This document shows, one piece after another, positions 6,045-33,812 of a stretch of 42,497 nucleotides of DNA (its first letter is position 1; every line of letters begins with the position of its first letter). Origin of the DNA: an uncultured Polyangiaceae bacterium (GTDB lineage Bacteria > Myxococcota_A > Polyangia > Polyangiales > Polyangiaceae); contig CAYLJT010000001.1 of the NCBI GenBank assembly GCA_964383995.1, forward strand, positions 1 to 42,497, read 5' to 3'. The notes under the pieces were generated by a model. That model did not search any database. It was given only the letters and a program-made list of their open reading frames with translations, and was not told the origin of the DNA. Both the position numbers and the translations under genes were made by a program.

Positions 6045-6117
6045 CGTCGTTTCCCTTCGAACCGCGTCCTCGAACTGGCGCCCCCAAGGGGAGCCTCAAA
6101 AACCATTACGGGGCCCA

Positions 6118-9516: not shown

Positions 9517-9519
9517 GGC

Positions 9520-12108: not shown

Positions 12109-14513
12109 GGGGACTCCTCCAGAAGGTAAGGCGCGTAGTAGGTCGGATCGGTCAGCTCGGGATCCAGGCTGTCCACGTAGACATCGAGCTTGCCGTTCTC
12201 TGGAATTTGCGGATCGCCATCCATGCGAATCACCTCGGTCGGTCCGAGAAGAATGCGCGACACCACGAGCTCGCCTCCGAGCACGTCGGCGCGGCGGAAG
12301 CGTCGGGCCTTGACCGAGCGCACGCCTGGAACTCGCTGCACGGTAGCGAGCACGTCGGCAAGCTCCAGCTCTTCGCCGAACGACAGCTCATCGGGGTGGA
12401 AGAAGCCCGGGGCGTCGTCTTCTCCCGGGCGCAAGGCCGCCAACACGGCGTCTCGGACACGGTGCGCCAGGGATCCGGGCTCGTTGCAGATGGACAGCGT
12501 GATCTCCACGGGCACGTACGTCGGCTCGGACACGAAGTGCTCGCGGCCCGCCATGCGCACGGCGTCGATGCGATCGTAGACCGCTTGCTTCACCGACGCG
12601 GACAGCGTGGCCCTGCCCCTCGGGTCGGCCAACACCAGCACGGCGTTGAACGGTCCACCGATGTTTTTGGCGACGGCGCGGGCCACGCCGTCTACGGTGA
12701 GGGCGGCCTTGGCGTAGTCAGTCAAGGTGACCGCGCGCTCCAGCGGACCGTTACGGAGGGAGGCCGGGATGCGCAGTCGCGCGGCCTCTTTGGTCTCGGC
12801 CTGACGACCGTTGGAGCCGGGAAGGACGTTGACCACCACGGGCTCGACGGCGAAGTCGCCCAAGGCCAGCGTGGTGGCGGTGCCCGGGACGAAGCGCGTC
12901 AAGACACCGGCGCCCACGTTTCCTGCGATGACGTCGCCCACGCGGTAGACGAGCTTGAGCTTGTCCGGGACGACTAGCAGGCCCAGCTCCGCATCGCTAA
13001 CCAGGTCGATGGCCTGACCCAAGATGCCGTCGCCGAGCTCGATCCACACCGACCCATCCTCGTCGGCGGTCGCCACGTAGTGCCGGTCGTAGGACTGGGA
13101 GTTCAGCAAATGGTCTTCGCGCGTCCAGCGCTCTGTGCCGAGGAACACGTCCAGGAGGGGCGTGGAGGTGATGACCCCGGTGGGCAGGGTGACGGCCTGA
13201 TACACGACAGGGCGACGAGGCACGCGAAGCGCGCGCAACAGGCTGCGCTGCCCCGGGCGCTCCTCGGTGAGAAAGCTCTGCCGATCGGAGCAGGCGTACG
13301 AAGACAGCTCGATTTCGTCCGTTTGCTGCTCGCCAAAACGAGCCGTGGCAAGGTTACCGTGGACGGTCAGACCCAGGCCGGTCCATGGCGTGGCGGCTTG
13401 TTCGAGGGGCGGGTCGAACGTGACGATGGTGACCGCGACCGGCGCCGGCGTTGGGTCGCTGCTGGCCAGGGGGTCGGCTACCCAACCCGGCAAGGCGTCG
13501 TAGGAAACGGCCGTGATGGTCACGATCTGGGTCGACGAGGCGGGCCCGCCCAATTCACCTTGCACGAAAGCCAAGCGCTGCCCGACGAGCAGATCGGCCA
13601 CGCTTCCCAGCAGCAGGACCTCGGTGGCGCCCACCGGCAAGGTCGCCGTGACCGCCGCCGGCCAGGCCGCGAGCGGGAGCGCAGAATGCTCTGGAATGAC
13701 CCGAGCCCGCTCGGTCACATAGAAGATCACCTTGGCGTCGTTCGCGCCCTCGGCGGTCGTGACCTCCACACCTTCAGGCACATAGCCACTTGTCGCGGAC
13801 GTGAACGAAAGGACGGTCTCGGCGGCCGTTCCGTCGAACAAGCTGGTGCCGAGCAAGGTGCCGTGCTGGCGCAGCGAGTAGCGCTGGGAGGCGTCCTCGA
13901 TGAACGCTTCGTTGGCGACCCGGTCTTGGAAGTAGCTGAGCATGTCGCCGTGGTGCGACAAAAGCTCGACCAACACGCGCTCCAGCGAGGCCGGAGCGAG
14001 GTCGGCCCAGTGCGGATTCTTGACCTTGATCCACTCCGACGACAGGTTGAGAAAGCCGGTGTAGTCCTTGGTCAGCAAATCGATGGCGGGCTGCTCGCGG
14101 GGTAGGCGAGGGGCCCTTTCGGCCAGGGGGCGGCAATCGCCGCGCTCGCAGTCGATGCTGAAGGTGAACGACGCCGACGAAAAGAACGGGTGGATCGGCA
14201 TCCCCGCGCCGTCGTTCATGGTGAGCGTGTAGGGGCTCGGATCGCCCACGCCGTCGATGTCCAGCCTGACCGTGCCGAGCACCGGATTTTCCGACGCCAA
14301 CGTCATGGTCAAAGACTGCACGCGCTTGCCACCCGAGAGCGTGAAGCTTGCGCTCGTGAACGTGCCCGTCCAGCTGTTTTGCTGGAGGTGCACGATGAGC
14401 TGGGCCGAGGTCGGGGCCTCGGGGGTCGGCAAGAGATTCAGCTCCAGGTAGTCGATGCCCTGAAAGTCCGAGTCGGCCTCGGCCTGCTCCCAAACTAAAA
14501 ATCGCGAGCTCAC
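12105..14513 (-). CDS. Baseplate J-like / putative baseplate assembly protein, paralogue 1 (802 aa; gp6/Afp11-slot wedge protein)
   Basis: ORF track. It follows the gp25-like gene directly, as gpJ follows gpW in P2. Carries the HGDMLSYFQDRVANEAF motif. The C-terminus FVSEPTYVPVEITLSICNEPG is typical of baseplate J. The GTG start at 14513 overlaps the gp25 stop (GTGA). Confidence 0.8.
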   Translation of the reverse strand: MSSRFLVWEQAEADSDFQGIDYLELNLLPTPEAPTSAQLIVHLQQNSWTGTFTSASFTLSGGKRVQSLTMTLASENPVLGTVRLDIDGVGDPSPYTLTMNDGAGMPIHPFFSSASFTFSIDCERGDCRPLAERAPRLPREQPAIDLLTKDYTGFLNLSSEWIKVKNPHWADLAPASLERVLVELLSHHGDMLSYFQDRVANEAFIEDASQRYSLRQHGTLLGTSLFDGTAAETVLSFTSATSGYVPEGVEVTTAEGANDAKVIFYVTERARVIPEHSALPLAAWPAAVTATLPVGATEVLLLGSVADLLVGQRLAFVQGELGGPASSTQIVTITAVSYDALPGWVADPLASSDPTPAPVAVTIVTFDPPLEQAATPWTGLGLTVHGNLATARFGEQQTDEIELSSYACSDRQSFLTEERPGQRSLLRALRVPRRPVVYQAVTLPTGVITSTPLLDVFLGTERWTREDHLLNSQSYDRHYVATADEDGSVWIELGDGILGQAIDLVSDAELGLLVVPDKLKLVYRVGDVIAGNVGAGVLTRFVPGTATTLALGDFAVEPVVVNVLPGSNGRQAETKEAARLRIPASLRNGPLERAVTLTDYAKAALTVDGVARAVAKNIGGPFNAVLVLADPRGRATLSASVKQAVYDRIDAVRMAGREHFVSEPTYVPVEITLSICNEPGSLAHRVRDAVLAALRPGEDDAPGFFHPDELSFGEELELADVLATVQRVPGVRSVKARRFRRADVLGGELVVSRILLGPTEVIRMDGDPQIPENGKLDVYVDSLDPELTDPTYYAPYLLEESP

Positions 14514-14878
14514 AGGCGCACCTCCAGGTTGCGAGGTTTGCGATCGGTGCGCCGTCGGAAGGCAAGCTTGACGATCAGCTCACCCGACTCGGGGACCGAC
14601 TCGACATTGACCGAGTCCACCAAGATCTCGTCGCCGATGTCACGCCGAATGGCCTGTTGAATGCGAAATTCCACCGCCGCGATGGTCAGATCGCTCAGCG
14701 GGTCGAAGATGGCACGGTTGAGACCCACGCCGAAGTCGGGTTGGTTCACGCGCTCGCCGGGGGCCGTAAAGAGCACCGCCTCGACCTTGTCCCGCAGGTG
14801 TTTGTCGGCGTCGTCGATGACGGCGACACCGCCCTGGGCGCCAAAACGGAATGGGTAGCTGAGGTAGCGATCGGCCAT
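14510..14878 (-). CDS. GPW/gp25 family baseplate wedge protein (122 aa)
   Basis: C-terminal part of ORF 14510..15517, starting at ATG 14878: MADRYLSYPFRFGAQGGVAVIDDADKHLRDKVEAVLFTAPGERVNQPDFGVGLNRAIFDP... The I...IL.T..GER...P.FG motif is the gp25/GPW hallmark. Confidence 0.9.
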   Translation of the reverse strand: MADRYLSYPFRFGAQGGVAVIDDADKHLRDKVEAVLFTAPGERVNQPDFGVGLNRAIFDPLSDLTIAAVEFRIQQAIRRDIGDEILVDSVNVESVPESGELIVKLAFRRRTDRKPRNLEVRL

Positions 14879-14886
14879 GGCGTATC

Positions 14887-15366
14887 TCAGGTGATAGGAG
14901 CGGTTGGGGGGCCGGGTGGAACAGGGAAGACGACCATCGTCGATATCGCCAAGAGGTGACAGGCGGAGGCGATTTCTTGCGCCTTCTTGCTGATGTCGCC
15001 GTCGGTGTCGGTGAACGTGGCGGTCATCTGGGAGACCGCGGCGCCAAGGGCCGCTGGGAAGGTCGCCGTGCCGAGAGGAAAGCTCTGCCCCGCGATGTAC
15101 GAGGCGACGGCCATGGCAAGCTGATTTCCGGCGAGCGACGCGCTTTGTGCGCCGAGCGCAGCGCCCGCTTGCGCGGCGAGCTGGCTTCGTCGCGCGAGGG
15201 CCGTGACGCAGGGAAAACCCGCCGCCATCGCGCCCGCAAACCAGGTGGAGACGGCGCCCGCGAACTTGTCCCCGGATTCCATGTTGGAGGACGGAAAGCT
15301 GCCCCCGTCGGGCACGAGCCACTGCGACTCGAGGGAAGATTTCAGGCTGGCGACGACGAGCGGCAT
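14887..15366 (-). CDS. Hypothetical Ala/Gly-rich 159-aa protein between the spike and gp25 genes; not PAAR-like
   Basis: ORF track (MPLVVASLKSSLESQWLVPDGGSFPSS...). GC-rich third positions. The start is 2 nt after the spike stop. No PAAR motifs and no recognisable family. Confidence 0.6.
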   Translation of the reverse strand: MPLVVASLKSSLESQWLVPDGGSFPSSNMESGDKFAGAVSTWFAGAMAAGFPCVTALARRSQLAAQAGAALGAQSASLAGNQLAMAVASYIAGQSFPLGTATFPAALGAAVSQMTATFTDTDGDISKKAQEIASACHLLAISTMVVFPVPPGPPTAPIT

Positions 15367-15368
15367 GG

Positions 15369-16052
15369 TTACTCCGTGAAGCTCTTCTTCGACACGTGGC
15401 TGGGTTGCATCGGTTGCGTCGGCGGGCCCGACGGGCCGACTCCTGTCGGATGGGTGTGCGTGTTGAAGAACGTCTTGAAGGTGTCCCCCAAGACGACGGG
15501 CTCCTGCGCACTGTCACCCAGCTTGATCTTCTCGGCCTTGATAATCACCTCACCGTTCTTGTTCAGGCGAATTTCAGCCTTGTCGCCGCCGTGCGCGAAA
15601 ATGATGATCTCACCTTGATCGTCCATGACAATCCGGTGACCAGCCTTGGTCTTGAGCACGGATAGGCCGGCGGCGGCGTTCGTGCCTTCGGAGGTAGGAA
15701 TCTCGGTTCCGCTCGCCTCGCCCAGGTCGTCGGCCTGCCCGCTCGACTCGGGGGCGCCCCAGAAGGTGCCTGTCCAGATCGGCCTGGAAATGTCACCCGC
15801 GGCGAACTCGATCCACACCGTATCGCCCACCTCGGGCAGAAAGAAGAAGCCCCGGTCCTTGCCACCTCCAAAGGGAGCGCAGGGCAGGGCCCAACCGCTC
15901 TCGGTGTCCTCTCCGAGCACGGCGGGGACCTTGGCGCGCACACGACCAATTTCGAGGGGGTCGTCGTTGGCGGTGACAACGCCCTCGTATTTACCGAAAA
16001 AGCGGTCTTTGATGCGCTCTTCGAAGACGCGGAGCAGGTCGTCGAGCTTCAT
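15369..16052 (-). CDS. Baseplate assembly protein V / gp5-type central spike (OB-fold plus beta-helix plus HxH apex), 227 aa
   Basis: C-terminal 227 codons of ORF 15369..16547, from ATG 16052 (ATGA overlap with the gpD-like stop): MKLDDLLRVFEERIKDRFFGKYEGVVTANDDPLEIGRVRAKVPAVLGEDTESGWALPCAPFGG...GFFFLPEVGDTVWIEFAAGDISRPIWTG. This is the classic gpV/VgrG OB-fold. The C-terminus is ...LGDTFKTFFNTHTHPTG. Confidence 0.85.
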   Translation of the reverse strand: MKLDDLLRVFEERIKDRFFGKYEGVVTANDDPLEIGRVRAKVPAVLGEDTESGWALPCAPFGGGKDRGFFFLPEVGDTVWIEFAAGDISRPIWTGTFWGAPESSGQADDLGEASGTEIPTSEGTNAAAGLSVLKTKAGHRIVMDDQGEIIIFAHGGDKAEIRLNKNGEVIIKAEKIKLGDSAQEPVVLGDTFKTFFNTHTHPTGVGPSGPPTQPMQPSHVSKKSFTE

Positions 16053-17194
16053 TGCGGCGGCACCTCCTCGGCGCTCTGGCCGAAGTCTTCCTTGCCTGAC
16101 AGGCCAATGGCGTTGCGCTCGGCGACGAACGTCTGCGCGATCACGCCTTCTTCGATGGTGGTCCGCACCGCGCGCACCCAGTAGGTGCCGACGAACGTCT
16201 TGCCAACGCCCTTGATGAGCACCGGACGCCTTGCTCGCAAGAGACCGCGGTATAGGGAAGGATCCACCTCTCCCCTGGCCTCGACGGCGAACAACGCGCG
16301 ATCGGTGCCTCCGCCGGATTGCGCTGCAATTTGCGCTTCCAGAGGGTAGGGGTCGCGGATAAGTCCGGTCGCCGCCGTGACGCCCGCGCCTTTGAGGCCG
16401 TCTTCCACGGTGCCGTCGAGCAAGCCGTCGCCCAAGGCGTCCAGGGTGGGGGAGCCATCGCCGCGCACGATGCGCTTTTTGACGGGGTCGATCGCGGCAC
16501 CTACCATGCGCACGGGGCCGGTGAACACGGCCTGCAGGTCGAGCCACTTGAGGTTCGGGCCTTCGCGCAGCAAGGCAAGGTCGGGCTGGGCCGTGTCCTT
16601 GACGCCGCGGGGCTTGAAATAGGCTGTCACATCACCAGATGTGGGGTCGGGCTCCAGATAGCAGATATAGCCATTGCGTTTGGCGAGGCGCTGAACGAGC
16701 TCCCAATCGGTGCTGCGTTGCACGAGGAGCTGCCGCTTTTCTTCGTGCTGGGCGTTGGTCGCCTGACCTTGGTAGGTGATGCCGTAGTTGCCAAACACCT
16801 GCTCCACGGCGTCGGCGTCGGTGGAGTCGGGGTAGGTGGCCACGCGCTCCTCGGCGTTCATCAACACCGCGGCATCCATGGCCAAGACCTCCAGGTAGGA
16901 GCTCGACTCGATGATCTCGAAATGGGGCCTTACGTGGGTGATGAAGCCGGCAAACATGTGCGTTTTGTTGCCGCCCGGGGCCTCCACCTCCACACCGACC
17001 TTGGCGGCTGGATTGAAGATGCCGTTGTCGAGGGGCGCAAACTCCCCTTCGCCGGATTGGCTCAGGTTGAAGCGCAGGGCGCACACGGTCGGATCCGAGT
17101 CACTCTCACGCACCTCGATGCGCGTGAGCAAAGCGACGATCTCCGCTTCGAGCGGCTGACCGTCCAGGGTGACGCGGTAACTGGGATCCGGCAT
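16049..17194 (-). CDS. Phage late control protein D-like baseplate hub (gp27/VgrG-N/Afp8-N equivalent), 381 aa
   Basis: ORF track. MPDPSYRVTLDGQPLEAEIVALLTRIEVRESDSDPTVCALRFNL...LLVQRSTDWELVQRLAKRNGYICYLEP resembles the GPD / contractile-injection VgrG-Pvc8 family. It lies directly upstream of the gpV-like spike. Confidence 0.85.
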   Translation of the reverse strand: MPDPSYRVTLDGQPLEAEIVALLTRIEVRESDSDPTVCALRFNLSQSGEGEFAPLDNGIFNPAAKVGVEVEAPGGNKTHMFAGFITHVRPHFEIIESSSYLEVLAMDAAVLMNAEERVATYPDSTDADAVEQVFGNYGITYQGQATNAQHEEKRQLLVQRSTDWELVQRLAKRNGYICYLEPDPTSGDVTAYFKPRGVKDTAQPDLALLREGPNLKWLDLQAVFTGPVRMVGAAIDPVKKRIVRGDGSPTLDALGDGLLDGTVEDGLKGAGVTAATGLIRDPYPLEAQIAAQSGGGTDRALFAVEARGEVDPSLYRGLLRARRPVLIKGVGKTFVGTYWVRAVRTTIEEGVIAQTFVAERNAIGLSGKEDFGQSAEEVPPQ

Positions 17195-17211
17195 GGTGCC
17201 TGTTTAGCTCC

Positions 17212-17487
17212 TCACTTGTTGGGCGGAATCAACACCGGTCGGCCCGGGACGATGATGTCGAAGGGGTCCATGACGTCGGAGGCGTCCGCCACCTTCCAGA
17301 ACTTCTTGGGGTCGCGGAAGAAGCGGTGCGCGATGTGGTCGAGGCGCTCTTCCCCCGAGGGGGTGTGGTAGTAGATGCCGGTCGTCTCGGGGATCGTGCG
17401 AAGCTCCAGAGCCTTGACCTCGCGGCCCTGGGCGTCCTTGGTGACCAGGGTCTCGACCTTCGCGTAGCGGCTGGTTTTGTCGATCAT
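17212..17487 (-). CDS. LysM-like / phage tail protein X-like small protein (91 aa)
   Basis: ORF track. YYHTPSGEERLDHIAHRFFRDPKKFWKVADASDV...IVPGRPVLIP follows the LysM/tail-X pattern (Y.V..G.RLD.IA.R.YGDP..WW.IA.AN...L.PG..L.IP). Confidence 0.75.
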   Translation of the reverse strand: MIDKTSRYAKVETLVTKDAQGREVKALELRTIPETTGIYYHTPSGEERLDHIAHRFFRDPKKFWKVADASDVMDPFDIIVPGRPVLIPPNK

Positions 17488-17497
17488 CGGCTGGGTC

Positions 17498-18172
17498 TCA
17501 CAGGGGCAAGATGTTGGTGCTCTGCGACGACGTGGTGTCTAGAAACTGCTTGGCCATCTCGTTGCGCTTCGAGGAGGTGAAGCTCAGGGCGTCCGCCGCC
17601 GCCTTGTTGTCCTTGGCGTCGGACTCACCCATCACCTCCATCTGCACGTCGATCTCCGCTCGCGTCGGGTTGAGCTCGGAGTTGAAGCGCGTCTCGTTGA
17701 CGGCCATGCCCGTGATGCGCACCGGCAAGACGCGCTTCTTACCCCAAATGAACAACACCGTCGGGCGTTGGGGGCGCGCCTTGACAGGCTCCTTGCCATC
17801 GGAGCTTGCGTCGGAGGGGCTCTCGGCGGCGAACAAAAGCCCTTCCAACGCCGATATTTCCGGCAAAATACCGAGCTCGGGCGGCAAGCCCTCGGCGGAT
17901 TGGTGCCGGTCATCGAAGTCGAAGCGCACCTGCACCGAGAACGTCTGCTTCACGGTTCCGCTCGAGGCGTCCGCGCCCTGTTCGCCCTTGCCGCCGCTCT
18001 TCTTTGCGCCCTCGGTGCCCGAGCCGCTCTTGCCTTGCTCGACCTGGAAAGTCCGAGACAAAACTTCCGGGTTGAAGCGAAACGGGATCGTCCGCTTGTC
18101 GCCGTTTGGATAGCCACCCGGTTCGTAGGCGATGAAAGCACCGCGGAGATAGCTCTTCGGGTCGTCGCTCAT
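17498..18172 (-). CDS. Contractile-injection-system tube-like protein (Afp5/Afp7 N-domain type; tube initiator/adaptor), 224 aa
   Basis: ORF track. KRTIPFRFNPEVLSRTFQ and PTVLFIWGKKRVLPVRITGMAVNETRFNSELNPTRAEIDVQMEV match the conserved N- and C-terminal strands of the CIS tube family as I recall them. The ATG at 18172 overlaps the upstream stop (ATGA). Confidence 0.75.
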   Translation of the reverse strand: MSDDPKSYLRGAFIAYEPGGYPNGDKRTIPFRFNPEVLSRTFQVEQGKSGSGTEGAKKSGGKGEQGADASSGTVKQTFSVQVRFDFDDRHQSAEGLPPELGILPEISALEGLLFAAESPSDASSDGKEPVKARPQRPTVLFIWGKKRVLPVRITGMAVNETRFNSELNPTRAEIDVQMEVMGESDAKDNKAAADALSFTSSKRNEMAKQFLDTTSSQSTNILPL

Positions 18173-18444
18173 CGAATCTTCCTCGTCAGGGCTGTGTAAA
18201 GCTCATCGGCCAGTCGTTCGGCGCCGCGCGGCCCGAGCAGCTCGTCGGCAGGGATGACGTCGAGCTCCAGGCGCTCCAGCGCAAGCTCGCGTACGCCCGA
18301 GCGCGCAAAGGGCGAGCTCGCGAGGCGCGTCGCCAGGCGTGTCAAGGCGTCATTCAAGAGCGCCTGTATGTCCATGTCTTTGGGCTCCTCGGACAGCCCG
18401 AGCACGGCAAAAGAGTCCATCGCAACTTCGATGCTGGCTTTCAC
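18169..18444 (-). CDS. Small hypothetical protein (91 aa) translationally coupled to the AAA+ ATPase
   Basis: Part of ORF 18169..18705. The GTG at 18444 overlaps the ATPase stop (GTGA) and is preceded by GAAGGGGG. An alternative ATG lies at 18420. Sequence: VKASIEVAMDSFAVLGLSEEPKDMDIQALLNDALTRLA...ELYTALTRKIR. Family unknown. Confidence 0.5.
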   Translation of the reverse strand: MKASIEVAMDSFAVLGLSEEPKDMDIQALLNDALTRLATRLASSPFARSGVRELALERLELDVIPADELLGPRGAERLADELYTALTRKIR

Positions 18445-20435
18445 GGGACCCCCTTCGGCAAAAAGCGTGAGAGCGCTCCGAAGTCGTCCTTCGAGCGAGA
18501 GAGACCGGCCTTTGCCAGTTCGCGGTAGGTGGCGCGCACCAAGTGCTCGGGGCGCAAAACGCCTTCGGGGTCGGCGGCGGCGAGGTGGGCGACGGCCACA
18601 CCGATGTTGTGGATGTCGCCGCCAGAGAGCGAGAAACGCTCGATGAACAACGACAGATCCAGGCCCCGCTCCCAGCGCTCGCGGCTTGGCAACGAGCGCT
18701 CCCACAACGCGCGACGCATGGACACATCGGGGGACGGCATCTCCAAGATGAAGCGGATACGCCTCACAAAGGCCGTGTCCATGTTGGAGCGCAGGTTGGT
18801 CGTCAGGATGCTTATCCCTTCGAACGACTCCATGCGCTGGAGCAAATAGGCCACCTCGACGTTGGCATAACGGTCGTGGGCGTCTTTCACCTCGGAGCGC
18901 TTGCCGAACAGGGCATCGGCCTCGTCGAAGAGCAAGATGCCGTGGCCCGCTTCGGCCTCTTCGAACACGCGAGAGAGCGACTTTTCGGTCTCACCGATGT
19001 ACTTGGAGACAACCTGGCTGAGGTCGATTCGATAGAGGTTGAGGCCCAGGGTGGATGCCAGGCACTGGGCCGCGAACGTTTTGCCCGTGCCCGGCGTGCC
19101 CGAGAACAAACACGAGAGGCCTTTTCCGAGGGGGCTGCGGCGCAAAAACGTCGTGTCCGCTTCGACCTTGGGCGCGGCCCGGTAGTAGCTGACGATGTCG
19201 CGCAACGCGGACAGCACCCCTTCGGGCGCCACGAGGTCGTCGAAGCTGGCCGTGGACGGGATGTGCGTCACGAGCCGTCCCATGCGTCGCGCACCTTGCG
19301 CGAGGATTTCGCGTGCGATGGCGTCGGCGCCCGGCACGGCGTTCGACGCCGCGCCCGAGAGCCGAGCGCGCGTGGCGGCGGCCCGCGCGGCGGCGCGCAC
19401 CTCGTCGAGGCTCACGCGAAAACGTTGGGCGAGGCGATCGACCTCGCCCGCGCTGGTCACCGTCGCGAAGATGCGGCGGCGCGTTTCGAGCTCCAGATCG
19501 GGCGCGTCCACCACGTCGATGCGCCCCACCTGCGCGTTCGCCGGGACCAACACCACGAGCCGCGGCAGCGTCGCCGACAGGCCGCGAACGAAGGCTTCGG
19601 CAAAGGGCTTGGCGGCGGTCGGCGCAAACAGATCGAGGACCAAGAGCCCGCCGCGCAGGCGGCCGAGCTCCGCGGCGTCGGGCAGCTCGTCGTTGCTCGT
19701 CACGACGAGGGCTGTGCTGTTGCTGAGGGACGCGATGTCGAGGGCGAGCTGCCGCGCGATGCGCGACGCCGTCGCGCGGATCGCGAGGATTTTGCTCTCG
19801 TCGAGGATCGTGAGGGCGCCTTCGACGACGGCCCTGGGCGACGCGATGGTGGTCGACGGCTCTTCGCGGAGCACCGCGATCGGCGTGTGCTCGATGTTGG
19901 GAATGTCCGAGACAAGCTGCACCCGCGCCTCGGCCGATGACAGCCGCAGCGGGTGCGCCGCGAGGGGCTTTTGCGAGGTGACGTCGAAGCGTTCGAGCAG
20001 GCCGAGCCGCTCCGCCTCGTTGCCCGGGAGGGCCGCCGCGAGGGCACGATCGAAGGGCAGGTCCATGGCCGAGACCAGCAGTCGTGCGAAGGAGGTCGGC
20101 GTGACGAGGTGCAGCCGCTCGTCCTCGCCGAGGATGCTGAGCGCCGCGGCGACCTCGGGAAACGCTTCGTTTGCAGCAGCAAGCAACACCAGCCACGCGG
20201 CCTCGTGGCTCATCCCGAAGCGCCCCGTGAGGCGGCCCCAGTGGGGGTCGTCGGATTGGGCAAACCCCTTCATCTTCAGGCCGAGGGCGCGCAGTCGGTC
20301 GCGGCCGTGGCGGAAGCCTTGGGTGACGTCGATGTCATCGTGGTCGCGCTCCGCCACGGCGCACTCGGCGCCGAGGATGGCGAGCTCACGCATCAGCGCG
20401 AGGCCCGGCCGTTCGAGCAGCGCGCGCCCGCTCAC
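18441..20435 (-). CDS. AAA+ ATPase, Afp15/Pvc15-type eCIS assembly ATPase (about 664 aa)
   Basis: ORF 18441..20723, trimmed to GTG 20435, which overlaps the DUF4255 stop (GTGA) with GGAG 8 nt upstream. An alternative ATG lies at 20393. Walker A: FSGTPGTGKTFAAQCLA. Walker B: GILLFDEADALFGKR. Sensor region: ILTTNLRSNMDTAFVRRIRF. Confidence 0.9.
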   Translation of the reverse strand: MSGRALLERPGLALMRELAILGAECAVAERDHDDIDVTQGFRHGRDRLRALGLKMKGFAQSDDPHWGRLTGRFGMSHEAAWLVLLAAANEAFPEVAAALSILGEDERLHLVTPTSFARLLVSAMDLPFDRALAAALPGNEAERLGLLERFDVTSQKPLAAHPLRLSSAEARVQLVSDIPNIEHTPIAVLREEPSTTIASPRAVVEGALTILDESKILAIRATASRIARQLALDIASLSNSTALVVTSNDELPDAAELGRLRGGLLVLDLFAPTAAKPFAEAFVRGLSATLPRLVVLVPANAQVGRIDVVDAPDLELETRRRIFATVTSAGEVDRLAQRFRVSLDEVRAAARAAATRARLSGAASNAVPGADAIAREILAQGARRMGRLVTHIPSTASFDDLVAPEGVLSALRDIVSYYRAAPKVEADTTFLRRSPLGKGLSCLFSGTPGTGKTFAAQCLASTLGLNLYRIDLSQVVSKYIGETEKSLSRVFEEAEAGHGILLFDEADALFGKRSEVKDAHDRYANVEVAYLLQRMESFEGISILTTNLRSNMDTAFVRRIRFILEMPSPDVSMRRALWERSLPSRERWERGLDLSLFIERFSLSGGDIHNIGVAVAHLAAADPEGVLRPEHLVRATYRELAKAGLSRSKDDFGALSRFLPKGVP

Positions 20436-21574
20436 GGCTCGATCTCCAGCACGATGAAGGGCGTAAATTGCACGGGGATGCCGACGCCCATGTCGAGGCG
20501 CGCGGCGACGCGGTAAACGCCTGAGGCGAGGCCCGTCGGGGTGACGTCGAGCGACGTCGCGGTCACCGAGGCAGCCGTAAATGGTTTGACGTCCGACGGA
20601 TCGAAGATGCCGCGATCGGGCCAGAAGTAGACCTCGACGACATTGCTGAGCCCCTGGCCCGTCAGCGTGAGGGCGCCGCTGCCTTGGCTGTGCGAGAACG
20701 CGGGCGGTCCGTCGAGCATCCATGCGCCCGTGCTTTGCACCTGGATTTCGTAGGCCTCGGAGGTGAGCTGACCGGAGCTGACGGTGACCTTGTGCGTGCC
20801 GGGGGCGATGGTGCCGATGGGCAGTTGCAGCCGCACGCCGCGATCGGGCTCGGCAGGGTCGACGGGCACCACCGCACCGCTCAGCACCGTGAAAAGGTTG
20901 GTGCCCACAGCAACCGTATCGGCAGCCGCGCCAAAGGGCCCGTCGATGCGGATGAACGCGTCTTCGGCGGGGCGCGCGGGCACGATGCGAGAGATGACCG
21001 GACGGCTGCGCGCGGTGGGGCCGCTGAGGTTGATGCCGAGGGGCGAGACCACGGCGCCGAGGCTCGTGGGCGGCAGCGCGCTCTTGATTTGAACGGGCCA
21101 GACTTCGTAGAGCAAGAACGGCCGATGTTTGATTTGCAGCGGGGAAAACAGCTTTTCCATCAAGTCCGGCGTCATCGGGACGAGGGACGTGTTGAGCTTG
21201 CCTTCACCGAGCGCAGGGGGAATCGCCAGGGCGGCGAGGTCGAGCACTTGCTTGTCGTGGAAGGCCTTGGCCACTTCGCCGAGCAAGCGATGCGCACCGT
21301 CCGCGTCTTTGGTGGGCGCCTCGCCGTAGGTCGTGATCATGAAAAAAATCGAAAGCGTGATGGGCGGCGAAGTGCCGCTGCCATCGGCGTTTCGCAGCAG
21401 ACCGTCGTTGCGGTGCGACGGATGCTCCATGACGTACATGAGCGACACGCGGACCTCTTCGGTCGTCAGCAACGTGTCCGGTGGCGGCGCCACCACCACC
21501 GACGGTGAGACCGTGGCCTTGAGGAAGGTGCTCAGCACGCTCGACGCGTGAAAGAGGTTCGTAAAAAGCGCCAT
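20432..21574 (-). CDS. DUF4255 (Pvc16/Afp16 N-domain) tail terminator/cap protein with a C-terminal Ig-like (IPT/TIG-like) extension, 380 aa
   Basis: ORF 20432..21643, trimmed to ATG 21574 (GGGGAGG upstream, 2 nt after the upstream stop). MALFTNLFHASSVLSTFLKATV...VRVSLMYVMEHPSHRND...PPITLSIFFMITTYG...AHRLLGEVAKAFHDKQVL matches the DUF4255 pattern. The last ~190 aa contain two beta-rich segments: RIVPARPAEDAFIRIDGP...THKVTVSS, and ALTLTGQGLSNVVEVYFW...VTATSLDVTPTGLASGVYRV. Confidence 0.85.
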   Translation of the reverse strand: MALFTNLFHASSVLSTFLKATVSPSVVVAPPPDTLLTTEEVRVSLMYVMEHPSHRNDGLLRNADGSGTSPPITLSIFFMITTYGEAPTKDADGAHRLLGEVAKAFHDKQVLDLAALAIPPALGEGKLNTSLVPMTPDLMEKLFSPLQIKHRPFLLYEVWPVQIKSALPPTSLGAVVSPLGINLSGPTARSRPVISRIVPARPAEDAFIRIDGPFGAAADTVAVGTNLFTVLSGAVVPVDPAEPDRGVRLQLPIGTIAPGTHKVTVSSGQLTSEAYEIQVQSTGAWMLDGPPAFSHSQGSGALTLTGQGLSNVVEVYFWPDRGIFDPSDVKPFTAASVTATSLDVTPTGLASGVYRVAARLDMGVGIPVQFTPFIVLEIEP

Positions 21575-21576
21575 CG

Positions 21577-22845
21577 TCAGAACCTCCCCGGGATGGTGGA
21601 GCCGAACGGCAGACCCGGATCGATGCCGTGGGCGCGGGGCCAAACCACCGAAGGCTCGGCCACCTGGGGCGCGCCCTTGGTCTGAATCTCCACGCGGCCG
21701 ATGGAGATTTTGATGCTCGGCGTCGCGGGCTTGGGGGCTGCCGCCGGGGTCGGACGACGTTCGGCGCGGGGCGTGACCGTCGGCTGCGGCGCTGTCTTCG
21801 CCGCGGACGCAGGCTTCATCCGTTGGCCCTCGGGCTCCCGTGCTCGCACCGCGGGCGCCGCCTTGTCTCGGACACGGGGCTCGGGCGCGGCCTTGAGCGG
21901 CGCCGGCACGGGCATCGGCGTCGGGCCCTTGGCAGGAGCCTCGGCGGGCCTCCCGGGCGCCTCTGGCGGGCCCTTCGCCGTCGCGGCGAGCCGGCGCTCA
22001 CGGAGCTCTTCTTCGGCGCGCTGCAAGCGCGCGGCGTAGCTCTCGCGGCCCTCCGCGGTGGGACGATCGACGGGCTGCTTCGGTGCGCCTTCCGTCGGCT
22101 CGCGCGGCCCGGCGGCGGCGACCTTGGGGCCCCGATCCACCGGCCCCGGCTGCGCGCCACGCGCCTCGTCCTGCGCTGGCCTCCGCGCCGGGTCGGGGCT
22201 GGTTTGAGCTGCAACGAAAGGCGACATCACGCGCTCCACCACCGTTCGCTCGACGCGCTCCACGACGCGCACGGTCTGCTCGCGCAGGGCGGGCGAGGCC
22301 GCCCTCGGCAGCGTCTTCGCCTCGCCTTTGGGCCCTTCGTTCGGCCCCATCGGCGCCGCGTAGATGCGGCTCTCCGGCCGCGTTTCGCTCGGCCTCGGGG
22401 CTCCTCGGCTTTCGGAGCGAGGCGCCTCCGCGCGCCCATCATCGGTTCGCCGCGCTCCATCGCCGAGGCTCGACGCGCGTGGAGCTCGCGCTGCCTGCGG
22501 CTCGGGCAGTGCGGGCTCCGCCCCGGGCTCTCGCGGACGAGCTTGTCGATCGCCGGGCGACGTAGGGCTCGAAGCGCGGTCTTCGGCGTCGTCGACGCGA
22601 TCGAGGGCCGGGCGGGGTGAGATCGCGCGTGCGGGGCGCGCGGGCTCCAAGACCGCGTCGTTCGGGGGCAGCTCGCCGGCCTCTTCGAGCGGGAATTCGC
22701 CTTCATTTCGCGCGTCGCGCGGCTCGGCGGAGGGCGCCGTCTCGCGCACGACAGCCGTGGTGGCGGCCCCGCGCGCGGCCGTCTTCGCGGGGCCGCTACG
22801 CGCCGATTGCAGAGGTCCGCTCGTGATGCGGTCGAGGGCACCCAT
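21577..22845 (-). CDS. Pro/Ala/Arg-rich low-complexity protein (422 aa) in the tape-measure (P2 gpT / Afp14) position
   Basis: ORF track. The ATG at 22845 is preceded by GGAAGG and lies 3 nt after the upstream stop. Composition is dominated by P/A/R/E, with one short helical segment (REQTVRVVERVERTVVERV, YAARLQRAEEELRERRLAA). C-terminus: ...SIKISIGRVEIQTKGAP. The tape-measure assignment rests on synteny only. Confidence 0.55.
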   Translation of the reverse strand: MGALDRITSGPLQSARSGPAKTAARGAATTAVVRETAPSAEPRDARNEGEFPLEEAGELPPNDAVLEPARPARAISPRPALDRVDDAEDRASSPTSPGDRQARPREPGAEPALPEPQAARAPRASSLGDGARRTDDGRAEAPRSESRGAPRPSETRPESRIYAAPMGPNEGPKGEAKTLPRAASPALREQTVRVVERVERTVVERVMSPFVAAQTSPDPARRPAQDEARGAQPGPVDRGPKVAAAGPREPTEGAPKQPVDRPTAEGRESYAARLQRAEEELRERRLAATAKGPPEAPGRPAEAPAKGPTPMPVPAPLKAAPEPRVRDKAAPAVRAREPEGQRMKPASAAKTAPQPTVTPRAERRPTPAAAPKPATPSIKISIGRVEIQTKGAPQVAEPSVVWPRAHGIDPGLPFGSTIPGRF

Positions 22846-22848
22846 GGG

Positions 22849-23022
22849 TCAGCCTTCCAGCCCGAGGCCCGCGACGAGGGCCCGCGTGTCGTCGACATCG
22901 ATGAGCTCTAGGTAGGCAAGGCGTCGCCGCAGCGGCAGGCGCAAAATGGCGTCTTCGCTCCAGTGGTACCGCGTTGCCAAGCGGTGGATGTCTTCGAGCA
23001 TGCGGCGACCTCGTGTCGTCAT
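22849..23022 (-). CDS. Small 57-aa ORF, either an independent product or the -1 frame extension of the upstream gene; possibly DUF6760-like
   Basis: C-terminal part of the 22849..23784 frame: MTTRGRRMLEDIHRLATRYHWSEDAILRLPLRRRLAYLELIDVDDTRALVAGLGLEG. The ATG at 23022 overlaps the upstream TGA (ATGA). No Shine-Dalgarno is visible. The YHWSE..IL.LP..RR..YL motif recalls small conserved eCIS-locus proteins (from memory, unverified). Confidence 0.55.
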   Translation of the reverse strand: MTTRGRRMLEDIHRLATRYHWSEDAILRLPLRRRLAYLELIDVDDTRALVAGLGLEG

Positions 23023-23768
23023 CTCGGCAAAAAAAAACCGGCCACATCGAACGGCTCTGAAAAGGCGTGAGCGCACGCGGCGCAGACCACGTCCATCGCG
23101 AGCTCGGCCTCCGGCAGGGCGCCTTCCAAGGCGGCTTCGAGAGCCCTTCTCACCGCCGTTGGCAGCGCCTGCGCGAACGCGTCGTCGAAGGGGCCTTCGC
23201 GGTCGCCGTAGCGGAGGAGCGTGCGCGCGATGAGCCACGTGCGCTTCTCGGCCGCGGTCTCGAGGGCCTCGTCGAGCAGCTCTTCCTGGTCCCCTGCGGT
23301 GGGCAGGCGCAGCTCCGCGCGCACATCGTTGGTGGTCAAAACATTCAACCGGCGCTGCCCGACGTCGCCCGAATAAAGAGGCAGATCGCTCAGCTTGAAG
23401 TCGACCTCGTTCTTGGCCCGGCACGCGGGGCAGGTGACGTCCGCGTTGACCGTGTCGCCAAACGAAAGGCGCCGTACGAGCACCAGGGCCAGGTCGCGCT
23501 CGGCGACGGTCATGTCTCGGACGCGCTTGAGGGCCTCGCTGTGATCGTGGCCCGGTGGCACCAAACAGCGCGCGACGATCTCGTTGCAAAGGCGCGCGGT
23601 GTTCGGGTCGCCCTGATGGCGTTCGACGACCTCTTCTTCGAAGCCGGTCATCGAACGCAGCGCGAGCGTCGAGCGCGTGCCGCCATCGACCCGCTTCGCG
23701 TTCGCGGCGCGCCGCGTGGCAAAGGGGTTCTCGATGCGATCGGTGCTCGAACGCTCGTCCGCCTTCAT
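23019..23768 (-). CDS. Post-tube 249-aa protein with two CxxC pairs (zinc-ribbon-like), in the tail/baseplate assembly chaperone position
   Basis: ORF track. The ATG at 23768 is preceded by GAGGAG. Contains VTCPACRAKNE and VVCAACAHAF. It sits between the tube gene and the tape-measure candidate, like P2 gpE or lambda gpG. It may belong to what annotation pipelines call the 'T4 family baseplate hub assembly chaperone' (memory only). Confidence 0.6.
   Translation of the reverse strand: MKADERSSTDRIENPFATRRAANAKRVDGGTRSTLALRSMTGFEEEVVERHQGDPNTARLCNEIVARCLVPPGHDHSEALKRVRDMTVAERDLALVLVRRLSFGDTVNADVTCPACRAKNEVDFKLSDLPLYSGDVGQRRLNVLTTNDVRAELRLPTAGDQEELLDEALETAAEKRTWLIARTLLRYGDREGPFDDAFAQALPTAVRRALEAALEGALPEAELAMDVVCAACAHAFSEPFDVAGFFLPR
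23022..23040 (-). promoter_or_regulatory. Candidate -1 programmed ribosomal frameshift site (T9G; T_TTT_TTT and T_TTT_TTG in zero-frame register)
   Basis: The minus strand reads GTG GCC GGT TTT TTT TTG CCG AGA TGA (plus-strand A9 at 23029-23037). The -1 frame continues TTT GCC GAG ATG ACG... into the 57-codon ORF. Position and heptamer resemble phage P2 E/E+E'. Confidence 0.4.
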
Positions 23769-23802
23769 GACTCCTCGTGCTCACCCCAAAGGGGGCAAGC
23801 GG

Positions 23803-24303
23803 TCAGGTTTCGACCGGCTCGGTCAGCGAAGCATCCCGCTGGAAGCCTTCGTGCTCGATCTTGATCATGGTGATCGCGACCGCGTTCGCGTTGGCATCCA
23901 TCTCGGGCGTCGCCTGGTACTCGCTCACCCAGGCGCGTCGCACCTTGTAGCGAAGGACCGGCGTGCCCTGCAGGTTCATCACCTCGATGAACAGGTCCTT
24001 GCGGTACTTCGCAAGCGACATCGCCGCGGAGCCCTCCAGGTTGTTCACGAGGTTCGCCCAGTCTTCGAAGGTTGTGTCGTGGGTGAGCCCCGCTTCCATC
24101 GTGATCGCTTCGAACTTCGTGCGACCAGGCATCTTGCGGACGATCGAGGGATCGCCCGCCTCACGCCATTCGATGGCCTCGGTGGTCTTCTTGAGCGCGC
24201 CCATCTTCGAGAGACCCGCGACGGCGCGGCCGTCGAGGACCACTCGAAAACGGAAGTTTTTGTAGGGATCGCTGCGGTGCGTGTTGACGGAGAACTGAGC
24301 CAT
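23803..24303 (-). CDS. Contractile tail tube protein (T4 gp19 / Afp1 / TIGR02241-type), 166 aa
   Basis: ORF track. MAQFSVNTHRSDPYKNFRFRVVLDGRAVAGLSKMGALKKTTEAIEWREAGDPSIVRKMPGRTKFEAITMEAGLTHD...LRYKVRRAWVSEY is a textbook eCIS/PLTS tube sequence. Confidence 0.92.
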   Translation of the reverse strand: MAQFSVNTHRSDPYKNFRFRVVLDGRAVAGLSKMGALKKTTEAIEWREAGDPSIVRKMPGRTKFEAITMEAGLTHDTTFEDWANLVNNLEGSAAMSLAKYRKDLFIEVMNLQGTPVLRYKVRRAWVSEYQATPEMDANANAVAITMIKIEHEGFQRDASLTEPVET

Positions 24304-24315
24304 GGTGGTTCCTCG

Positions 24316-25878
24316 CTACGCCTTCTGATTCACGATCTGGCTGAGCTTGACGACGACGAACTCGGCGGGGCGGAGCGGCGCGAAGCCGACCCACACGTTC
24401 ACGATGCCTGCGATCTGATCGATCTCAGGCGTGGTCTCCGAGTCGCATTTGACAAAGTAGGCGTCGCGGGACGTGGCCCCGGCGAAGGCGCCCTGCCGGA
24501 AGAGCTGCTCCATGAACCCGCCAATGGCGAGCCGGAGGTTGCTCCAAAGCTGCTCATCGTTGGGCTCGAACACCGCCCACTGGATGCCGTTGTAGATGCT
24601 CGTGCGCAGGAAGATGGCCGTGCGCCGCACGGGCACATAACGCCACTCGCTCGACGGCTGCATGGTGCGCGAGCCCCACACCACATTGCCTCCTTGGGGC
24701 AGCGAGCGGAGCGCGTTGATGCCCAAGGGATTGAGATCGTCTTGGTGCGTGTCGAGAAGTTTGTACTCAATCTTTCTCACGCCGAGCAACGTGGCTTCGA
24801 GCCCCGCGGGCGCCTTCCACACGCCGCGTCGTTGATCGGTGCGGCCATAGAGCCCGGCGACGAACGCCGAGGGACCCATGACGACGGTGGGATCGCGGCC
24901 GTTGCCGATCGGATCGCTAATCTCCAGCCACGGGAAATACACCGCGCCGAAGTTCGTCTTCGTCATCGACGCGTACTCGGTGACCGTGTCGCTCGTGGCC
25001 TGGGTAGGCGTCACCGAGGACTTCTGACGAGGCATGTCTGCGACACAGAAGAGGTCCTGTCGCGCCCGGTTTTCGGCGTAGTCGAGGGCGACCTGCTGAA
25101 TCGTGCGGGTGTTCGCGTCGGTGTCCGACGTGTTGGCGAAGCGAGCGGGGCACACGAGGAGGCTCGCGTCGGTGACCTCGTCGAGGCGCTGAAAGAGGTT
25201 GGAGTCGAAGTCGGTCGGGCCCATCGTCGTGCCGCCGCCAGCGCCGCCGCTGAGCGTGACCGGGGAGGCGTCCGTGGCCGGGACCGTGGTGGCCACCGCG
25301 GGGGGCGCGATGTTGGTGTTCCAACGAATGTAGAGGCTCCGGAAGAGCACGTCCGGCGCGTAGTTCTCGTCGGACGCGTCGAAGCTCAGGCGATCCCACG
25401 TCTCGACCGCGGTGAACGTCAAAGCGCCCGGCAGCCGATAACGAACATCGATCTTGAAGCGGCTCGCCGAGCCGTCGCTGGAAGGCCCGAACTTGATGTC
25501 GACGCTGTCTCCCCACGACCCCGGCGACGAGGCCGCGATGCTGACCTGATTGGGCGAAACCCCGACGGTGCGCGTGCTGGTGGCCACCGTGTCGGTGGTC
25601 TTGATCGCCCGAAGGATATAGGCCGTCGTGCCACCGTTGCCGAAGTACGCGTCCATCGCATAACGGAGCTCGACCCGCTCCGCGACGCCGGAGACGTCCC
25701 TCTCGTAGCCTCCAAAGGCCCTCTCGAAGTCGGCCTTTCCTTTGATTTTCGTGGGCTCGAAAGGACCCCTTTCAGTTTGACCCACAAAGATTGTCGTCGA
25801 CGTACCGGCTCCTTCGATGGAGCGTGCGCCGCTCGGAATCTCTTCGACGTAAACACCCGGATGCAAGCGTGCAGGCAT
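24316..25878 (-). CDS. Contractile tail sheath protein (Afp2/Pvc2-type), 520 aa
   Basis: ORF track. The N-terminus MPARLHPGVYVEEIPSGARSIEGAGTSTTIFVGQTERGP and the C-terminal part ...LNPLGINALRSLPQGGNVVWGSRTM...WRYVPVRRTAIFLRTSIYNGIQWAVFEPN are hallmark phage sheath motifs. Confidence 0.95.
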   Translation of the reverse strand: MPARLHPGVYVEEIPSGARSIEGAGTSTTIFVGQTERGPFEPTKIKGKADFERAFGGYERDVSGVAERVELRYAMDAYFGNGGTTAYILRAIKTTDTVATSTRTVGVSPNQVSIAASSPGSWGDSVDIKFGPSSDGSASRFKIDVRYRLPGALTFTAVETWDRLSFDASDENYAPDVLFRSLYIRWNTNIAPPAVATTVPATDASPVTLSGGAGGGTTMGPTDFDSNLFQRLDEVTDASLLVCPARFANTSDTDANTRTIQQVALDYAENRARQDLFCVADMPRQKSSVTPTQATSDTVTEYASMTKTNFGAVYFPWLEISDPIGNGRDPTVVMGPSAFVAGLYGRTDQRRGVWKAPAGLEATLLGVRKIEYKLLDTHQDDLNPLGINALRSLPQGGNVVWGSRTMQPSSEWRYVPVRRTAIFLRTSIYNGIQWAVFEPNDEQLWSNLRLAIGGFMEQLFRQGAFAGATSRDAYFVKCDSETTPEIDQIAGIVNVWVGFAPLRPAEFVVVKLSQIVNQKA

Positions 25879-33473: not shown

Positions 33474-33812
33474 CGCGTTCGGTCACCACGGCGACCCGGA
33501 GCGCTGTCCTGTCCTGTGCGCGAATTGTCCGAGACTTCACGTCTGCGAGCACGCCCGGTGCGCCCAGCGGCCGCCGCGCAAAAGCGAGGGCGCCTTGCCC
33601 TCGACGCTCACGCACGCGCCATTTCGTGCCGATCGAACGTAAGGTCAAGTACCCTCGTGGTGGGGATGTCTCGGAAAGACAAAGTGGTGTGGGCCGGCGC
33701 CGGTGCCCGCGGCAAGACCCGCTCGGCTTTTTTTTGCGAGGCTCGCGAGAATGATGAAAAAAAATGCTGACCGTGCTACGACACGACAATCACCGCAGGA
33801 CAATTGCGATTG

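Follow-up and report, generated by a model that had tools for sequence, protein, structure and literature searches.

Programmed frameshifting in the genes of tail assembly chaperones is characteristic of phages with long tails. In the G/GT pair of lambda, a −1 shift that occurs at a low level close to the end of the first open reading frame (ORF) produces a fusion and requires no RNA stimulator, and G and GT are both chaperones that are absent from the particle (Atkins et al. 2016, PMC5009743). Long-tailed phages have conserved this G-T frameshifting "except T4" (Atkins et al. 2016, PMC5009743), in which gp26 and gp51 are both given as hub assembly chaperones (Leiman et al. 2010, PMC3004832). 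Phage P2 (NC_001895) has an annotated −1 frameshift at GGT TTT TTG in its E/E+E′ pair; the E gene directly follows that of the tube and precedes that of the tape measure, and the shift occurs near its 3′ end and adds about 50 residues. Here, we describe a related arrangement in an extracellular contractile injection system (eCIS). The window, i.e., the whole stretch of 42,497 nt analyzed (contig CAYLJT010000001.1 of an uncultured Polyangiaceae bacterium), carries a complete eCIS locus on its minus strand, as identified with Pfam, and the gene directly past the tube gene of this locus encodes a 249-aa protein (23019..23768) and ends in a run of nine T's (T9). The run is very probably a programmed recoding site, at which a −1 frame change would give a fusion protein and thereby two forms of a tail or hub assembly chaperone.

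The 3′ end of the 249-aa gene, read directly on the minus strand (to which the genes and junction features of the window described below belong), is GTG GCC GGT TTT TTT TTG CCG AGA TGA, and the encoded protein ends in ...FDVAGFFLPR. The T9 homopolymer (23029..23037), the putative recoding site, is made up of the third base of GGT, the two TTT codons and the TT of TTG. It contributes to two overlapping heptamers in the X_XXY_YYZ register, T_TTT_TTG (23028..23034) and T_TTT_TTT (23031..23037), and the frame-0 stop codon TGA (23019..23021) follows two codons past the run. In the −1 frame, the sequence continues GCC GAG ATG ... GGC TGA over 59 sense codons (22849..23028), including a 57-codon ORF whose ATG (23020..23022, first base at 23022) overlaps the frame-0 TGA as ATGA. 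Translation in this frame gives FFFAEMTTRGRRMLEDIHRLATRYHWSEDAILRLPLRRRLAYLELIDVDDTRALVAGLGLEG and then the stop; within it, ...FFFAEMTTRGRRML...GLEG leads to the end at 22849. The conceptual long form, consisting of the short form and the extension, has 306 aa, and its junction reads ...VAGFFF followed by AEMTTRGRRML.... The original prediction, made from the letters alone, was thus correct in placing both heptamers in register in a T9G tract at the end of the gene and in stating that a −1 slip enters the next 57-codon ORF, the −1 frame being open to 22849; its product of ~305 aa is 306 aa when computed, and the junction that it predicted occurs in a natural fusion (see below). T9 is the longest homopolymer of the window, which has a GC content of 65.8% (81% at third codon positions, GC3) and in which TTT accounts for 27% of Phe codons and GGT for 16% of Gly codons. 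The −1 frame is open over the entire 249-aa gene (a 311-aa ORF, 22849..23784). Because such openness is common in GC-rich DNA, it is no evidence alone, and the case rests on the conservation of the extension at the protein level.

We fetched 85 related loci (30 from genomes and 55 from metagenomes; 345 kb) and placed the domain and the extension in them by tblastn. Both were found in 69 loci, including the window, and 64 of these have a T-run at the junction (T9 in 40, T10 in 22 and T11 in 2; none is shorter), while the remaining five, a distant subgroup with ~30% identity, are in-frame fusions without a run. The 345 kb contain 63 A/T runs of at least nine nucleotides, all of which are located at the junction of the gene, in keeping with the earlier argument that a 9-nt homopolymer in such a genome is very unlikely to persist by chance. 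The hosts of the 64 run-bearing loci belong to Myxococcota, Actinomycetota, Acidobacteriota, Alphaproteobacteria and Phycisphaerae and include the archaeon Nitrosotalea (counted as six phyla). The frame-0 stop lies 2–10 codons past the run in 46/46 loci that share the arrangement of the window, and in the subclade of the window all 23 scored loci have T9 with the stop 2–3 codons later and show no register variation. The same T9 and register are also present in complete or isolate genomes of Sorangium (L002, L013) and Corallococcus (L009, L010). The orthologous loci, which the original prediction had named as a check, thus keep both the T-run and a −1 extension conserved at the protein level, and the motif LL.DVH.LA..YHWSE.DIL.L.L.RR.AYL.L is common to the extensions across phyla. 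An archaeal locus (L028, Candidatus Nitrosotalea sp. TS, 3757-3940) reads AAT TTT TTT TTA AAG AAT TAA and has the conserved −1 extension; judged from its sequence, this archaeon would use a programmed frame change.

Natural fusions provide a second view of the same junction. A search with the 249-aa protein found 219 homologues, which with few exceptions terminate in FF[FL]xx, and nearly all of the best 120 end in FDVxxFFLPR, FFLPS or FFFSS, with the stop two codons past FF[FL]. Four of these 120 (P0033, P0054, P0116 and P0119) are longer and continue at the C-terminus into a homologue of the 57-codon ORF. The natural in-frame fusion P0033 has the junction ...VAGFFFAEMSQRSRHLL..., in which FFFAEM is found as predicted for the window. 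The fused genes encode FF[FL] by mixed TTC and TTT codons (e.g., GCC TTC TTT TTC) and have no run; the homopolymer is therefore particular to split genes and does not simply follow from a poly-Phe sequence. In an AlphaFold model of the natural fusion (predicted local distance difference test score of 87), the FFF junction starts one continuous helix (residues 224–249). The 57-aa ORF alone matched no Pfam, NCBIfam or PHROG family, and when it was used as a query for homologues, only four near-identical small ORFs were retrieved.

The arrangement extends to more distant members of the family. A scan of IMG/VR yielded three groups, one of which is fused (L091–L094). In a large distant clade, an in-register heptamer is present in 59/59 scorable loci, as T_TTT_TTG in 46 and T_TTT_TTA in 13; these loci have six T's only, about eight codons before the stop, and a −1 extension of the type ...AFFLAYGGLHWEYAEVARLPLRTRQQFVEAL..., and the one that was checked for neighbors (L111) has the order sheath, tube and PF12322 gene. 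Five loci at 22–26% identity, one of them on a contig with 40% GC, combine T_TTT_TTC with an extension in the −1 frame. From 1.84 billion representatives, a profile search retrieved 6,199 family members (50% clustering), of which the best 150 comprise 72 fused long forms, 57 that end just past FF and 21 fragments or members with off-frame tails. The numbers of fused and short forms among these 150 indicate that the family has repeatedly switched between the fused and the frameshifted state, with the frameshift always at one structural point.

The 249-aa protein belongs to PF12322, the family of T4 gp26 and gp51 (E = 2e-13, 51 bits against a cutoff of 24.5; residues 34–246 on profile positions 15–218 of 219), contains two CxxC pairs, and also matches phrog_150 (E = 9.3e-10). 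The two T4 proteins are true homologues that are matched by the same two models. T4 gp26 (208 aa; positions 14–235 of the 282 of phrog_150) ends in ...LKEFFELL at the shift site, like the eCIS short form, and T4 gp51 (249 aa; positions 13–280) resembles the eCIS long form in its C-terminal tail, which aligns with the extension; hhalign and MAFFT aligned the extension to gp51 residues 165–247. Position 279 of phrog_150 is reached both by the conceptual 306-aa −1 fusion (29–279) and by the natural fusion P0033, and the window short form leaves the C-terminal end of the profile uncovered. Colinearity with the long paralogue gp51 over its full length, tail included, holds for the −1 fusion only. 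T4 differs in that the two forms are the products of separate, divergently transcribed paralogous genes (NC_000866; gp26, 5803-6429, minus strand; gp51, 6480-7229, plus strand), which involve no frameshift and do not lie beside the tube gene. We infer that paralogous genes provide the short and the long form in T4, and the existence of this pair may be the reason why T4 departs from G-T frameshifting. Two family members (P0076 and P0089) are named by the Joint Genome Institute (JGI) 'endogenous inhibitor of DNA gyrase (YacG/DUF329 family)', a name that was probably mis-transferred because of the zinc-ribbon-like CxxC...CxxC motifs of PF12322.

The junction resembles that of P2 in several respects. 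The P2 site, GGT TTT TTG, has the same heptamer as the window, as the original prediction had stated, as well as the same preceding codon. The junction and extension are also similar (VVGFLVAEL...VAVIFHWPPSELYPMSL in P2 and VAGFFFAEM...LATRYHWSEDAILRLPL in the eCIS). Comparison of the eCIS extension with P2 GpE by hhalign gave E = 5.7e-4 (0.28 for a reversed control) and a probability of 29%, phrog_10636 is matched by both the P2 extension and the extension of a fused relative, and the eCIS extension falls below detection by Pfam Phage_P2_GpE. These similarities are suggestive, not proof, of an ancient homology between P2 E′ and the eCIS and gp51 extensions. The motifs GF[FL].AE[LM] and [FY]HW[SP]..E[IL]..[LM].L are common to P2 (L163, 431-858) and the window (22849..23040). 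P2 differs in its unrelated N-terminal part, E being a 91-aa protein of Phage_TAC_7 and the eCIS protein a 249-aa member of PF12322 with two CxxC pairs, in having six T's instead of nine, and in being a phage. The likeness to lambda gpG/gpGT lies in the presence of two overlapping ORFs between the tube and tape measure genes (the latter only a candidate here), whereas the slippery sequence is another one and the proteins have no sequence or fold relationship.

In other myophages, namely Streptomyces phages pSt2308, LuckySocke and GiJojo and Bacillus phages HSE3 and BCD7, a PF12322 gene accompanied by a small ORF in another frame separates the tube gene from the next large gene. This large gene has a tape measure annotation in one of these relatives, HSE3. 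In the three Streptomyces phages (L031, L160 and L161), frame 0 ends in ...ILF[RQ]EL and the stop, there is no T-run, and a conserved extension, ...YSEYEQLVDAYKWSLTEIRKLTFRERKHWL..., can be read in the +1 frame; if a +1 shift took place at UUU_C or CUC_UGA_U, it would give ...FRELDY..., comparable to ...QELDQ... of fused relatives. This region is annotated as a separate small gene or left as a gap. BCD7 (L162, 3700-3918) has an unannotated −1 extension, AFNYHWSEDCILALSRSKRKRYVEMI, after ...TTLLGE and the stop, with a motif almost identical to that of the eCIS; in its junction, CTG GGG GAG TAA, we identified no canonical heptamer. The extensions of BCD7 and of the fused locus L093 gave sub-threshold matches to Pfam DUF6760 (E = 1e-4 and 0.03, respectively) and that of the window gave none. 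The DUF6760 family may represent the small ORF or extension where this has been annotated as a protein of its own.

By analogy with the phage systems, the gene would function as follows. Standard decoding would give the 249-aa short form, which stops two codons past the tract and ends where T4 gp26 ends. In a minority of expression events, a −1 change on the U-run would add the 59-residue helical extension and give the 306-aa form that is colinear with T4 gp51. The default and most economical explanation for the window would be a tandem −1 ribosomal slip on U_UUU_UUG, as at the P2 E/E+E′ site, and at a tract of nine U's, slippage of RNA polymerase with the insertion of one U may add to or replace the ribosomal slip. 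The common N-terminal part would hold the tape measure or the hub, as its position and the lambda and P2 pairs suggest, the extension would recruit another component, and a fixed ratio of short to long form would guide assembly. The anatomy of the site, its conservation, the natural fusions and the homology to gp26/gp51 are shown by the sequence comparisons described above, from which we infer the shift in vivo, its efficiency, the machine that slips, and the binding partners.

Several points weigh against this reading. A profile search of solved structures gave no meaningful match, Foldseek of the confident model against the PDB gave a best E of 0.58, and neither the 249-aa protein nor the extension matched the Pfam tail assembly chaperone (TAC) or GpE families even at E up to 10; the 249-aa protein had no NCBIfam match either. 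A fold link to known tail assembly chaperones was ruled out by these results, and the chaperone role consequently rests on the homology to gp26/gp51 and on gene position. Given the unrelated N-terminal domains and the lack of a fold match in the PDB, the eCIS gene would work like a G/GT or E/E+E′ pair without belonging to those families. The phage-type arrangement originally predicted for this locus stands as regards tube adjacency, is tied to a tape measure that is a candidate only, and needs correction as to family, which is that of T4 gp26/gp51 and not that of lambda G or P2 E. Other points against the reading are that the 422-aa protein proposed below as the tape measure is unproven in this role, that the ATG overlaps the stop in the window and in many myxobacterial relatives, and that 15 actinobacterial loci have one T fewer, which shifts the long form to +1 and the short-form stop to −1. 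A weak point against it is that we found no conserved RNA structure upstream or downstream of the run. The folding z-scores were 0.34 for the 100 nt downstream and −0.27 for the 73 nt upstream, RNAalifold predicted no pairs in 22 downstream and 23 upstream sequences, and Rfam gave only two sub-threshold chance matches; since lambda G/GT needs no stimulator, this result is only weakly negative. A weak 5-bp hairpin (GCCGT/GTGGC; 23041..23055) lies directly 5′ of the U-run and resembles a terminator or a slippage stimulator. A hairpin-plus-U terminator at this position was rejected, as three such sites were found against 1.7 ± 1.4 expected and the hairpin is not conserved in relatives.

The loci with one T fewer bear on the question of which machine slips. 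In the actinobacterial sister clade to which they belong, three registers occur. In the T10 register, the short form is in frame 0 and the long form in the −1 frame. In the T9 register (L011, L014, L015, L021, L022, L049, L054–56, L059–61, L063, L068 and L073, and also P0043, P0075, P0088 and P0109), frame 0 runs through 67–92 junk codons rich in Arg, Pro and Gly, and it is the +1 frame that encodes the conserved extension; the −1 short-form stop is nonetheless kept in 15/15 loci, in L059 as TAA by way of the rare Leu codon TTA (a compensated change from TGA to TAA). In the third, fused register, three loci retain the run as T11 or as T9 with a two-base deletion. A homopolymer error as the source of the one-T-fewer register was ruled out, because the register forms a deep divergent clade that includes isolates (Kribbella, L021; Geodermatophilus, P0088) and contigs of several separate JGI metagenomes; it also occurs sporadically beside T10 relatives. 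These loci need both −1 and +1 shifts, so a purely −1 ribosomal model fails there, and the simplest explanation for them is polymerase slippage or, failing that, ribosomal slips in both directions. Sites at which UUU is followed by a pyrimidine are +1 prone, and UUU_CGA is plausible as a ribosomal +1 site in this register.

It is therefore possible, if short of probable, that the same two products arise by a mainly transcriptional slip, in which RNA polymerase stutters on the run and yields mRNAs with U9, U10 and so on, U10 encoding the long form. Runs of nine A/T slip efficiently in bacteria, and dnaX of Thermus exploits productive polymerase slippage (Atkins et al. 2016, PMC5009743). The eCIS tract resembles those of Thermus thermophilus dnaX and Shigella mxiE in that nine A/T lie in a coding sequence, stops are nearby in the alternative frames, and two proteins sharing an N-terminus are possible, and differs from them in also holding a phased ribosomal heptamer. 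A transcriptional slip would fit the lack of a conserved RNA stimulator for ribosomal shifting and the bimodal run lengths, with six T's in the distant clades, 9–11 in the close clade and never seven or eight, and a single polymerase-level ladder would serve all three interconverting DNA registers of the sister clade. On the other hand, the T9 of the window can be explained by Phe-Phe-Leu and two overlapping ribosomal heptamers, the subclade of the window shows no register variation, and the one-T-shorter register could use the ribosomal +1 site mentioned above. Moreover, the six T's of the distant clades are too few for efficient polymerase slippage, and the ancestral solution, as read from the clades compared, was therefore clearly the ribosomal −1 heptamer. 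Since a 9-T tract is a classical site of RNA polymerase slippage and one clade needs both directions, a purely ribosomal mechanism, as assumed in the original prediction of a programmed −1 frameshift, is not established, while the interpretation as programmed recoding is supported.

An arrangement without any recoding, in which the 57-codon ORF is translated separately by termination-reinitiation at ATGA, is improbable. Such overlaps are common coupling signals, and a separately initiated 57-aa peptide is possible in the window and in those myxobacterial relatives that have the overlapping ATG; gene callers annotate ORFs of 50–57 aa in a few relatives, and the equivalent small ORF of phage HSE3 has its own ATG. 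In most other loci, however, the position of the ATG reads CTG, TTG, GTG, TGG or TTA, and L001, among the nearest relatives of the window, reads GAG CTG at the junction, so that independent initiation is not a conserved feature. Together with the lack of a Shine-Dalgarno sequence upstream of the overlapping ATG in the window, which had been pointed out originally, this favors programmed recoding. Separate initiation would also leave unexplained the presence of a run of at least nine in 64/64 loci against a strong GC3 bias, the many natural fusions, and the match of the fusion to the full phage profile and to gp51.

The occurrence of all three registers among the assemblies, including the otherwise nearly identical L014 (T9), L041 (T10) and P0116 (fused), might instead reflect a contingency locus, in which slipped-strand changes of the DNA between T9, T10 and T11 would cause phase variation of the eCIS among long-only, short-only and out-of-frame states. 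We consider this very unlikely because the registers are stable across deep clades and T9 is invariant in the subclade of the window, because the site at the 3′ end of the gene parts two conserved products and is no on/off switch, and because the six-T heptamer of the distant clades is not hypermutable. An assembly error splitting a fused gene, or a pseudogene, is scarcely credible: homopolymers are error-prone, and many genomes used for comparison bear 'MFD' isolate names and were assumed to be long-read metagenome bins, but the same T9 and register recur in dozens of independent assemblies, complete and isolate genomes included, the frame-0 stop is conserved, and a homologue with 79% identity on another contig (P0002) has the same ending as the window gene.

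A programmed recoding site that makes two forms of a chaperone can be combined with the above comparisons into a broader proposal, which we put forward tentatively and regard as doubtful in its entirety. The U-tract would be dual-mode and bidirectional and work largely by polymerase slippage, with T9, T10 and T11 interchangeable; gp26 would correspond to G and gp51 to GT, the pair being duplicated in T4 and made by frameshifting in eCIS and other myophages; and the extension and slip site (GGT TTT TTG, GF[FL].AE[LM]...[FY]HW) would be homologous to those of P2 E′. If this were true, one ancient frameshift cassette would be common to P2-like tails, T4-like tails, and bacterial and archaeal eCIS.

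A chaperone pair made by programmed frameshifting would be of a known kind; the protein family, the eCIS host, the three-register T9–T11 tract and the equivalence to gp26/gp51 appear to be new. In the literature on eCIS, contractile injection systems and tailocins, we found no description of frameshifting or of a tail assembly chaperone of the PF12322 family, in agreement with the earlier statement that frameshifting was not known to have been described for an eCIS, and the main text of Antonov 2013 (PMC3711429) does not mention the family. Under this proposal, a conserved eCIS gene whose family has ~6,200 representatives at 50% clustering would gain a function and a 306-aa product that is missing from the annotation, and the T4 exception would have a possible account, the two products being placed on separate paralogues. 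It also matters for the engineering of eCIS as delivery devices, in which recoding or codon-optimizing the gene would destroy the T-run and probably assembly too. Furthermore, the six-T heptamers, the three-register T9–T11 tracts and the fused genes form a natural series with which ribosomal and polymerase slippage could be told apart and the evolution of such sites traced.

The eCIS locus is arranged in the order sheath, tube, 249-aa gene with the 57-codon ORF, 422-aa gene, and Pvc16_N onward. The sheath gene (24316..25878; Pfam PF04984 and PF17482) is followed by the tube gene of the gp19 family (23803..24303; Pfam PF06841, E = 1.1e-39), directly upstream of the 249-aa gene. The 422-aa gene (21577..22845) starts 4 nt past the stop of the extension, and the remainder of the locus (1449..21643) encodes, according to Pfam, a Pvc16_N terminator, an AAA ATPase, CIS_tube, GPD, Phage_base_V, gp25, Baseplate_J, a P2_I-like protein and DUF6519. 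The 422-aa protein is rich in Pro, Ala, Arg and Glu (64% Pro/Ala/Gly/Arg/Glu) and had no Pfam, PHROG or NCBIfam match. Its C-terminal motif, S.SI.IGR.EI....H.IDPGL.FG (SIKISIGRVEIQT...HGIDPGLPFG in the window), is kept across loci, in which the protein is ~300–460 aa long. Given that the annotated tape measure of Bacillus phage HSE3 occupies the slot of this gene, we flag the 422-aa protein as a candidate tape measure. Lineage II eCIS lack Afp6 and Afp14 and have subtype-specific genes without known domains (Chen 2019, PMC6899500), among which the 249-aa, 57-codon and 422-aa genes appear to be. The 422-aa protein is in this respect a candidate for the tape measure that has been reported to be generally absent in lineage II.

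Elsewhere in the window, the only other long A/T runs are a T8 (33728..33735) and an A8 (33757..33764) located 21 nt apart, a pair that could be a bidirectional terminator between convergent genes.

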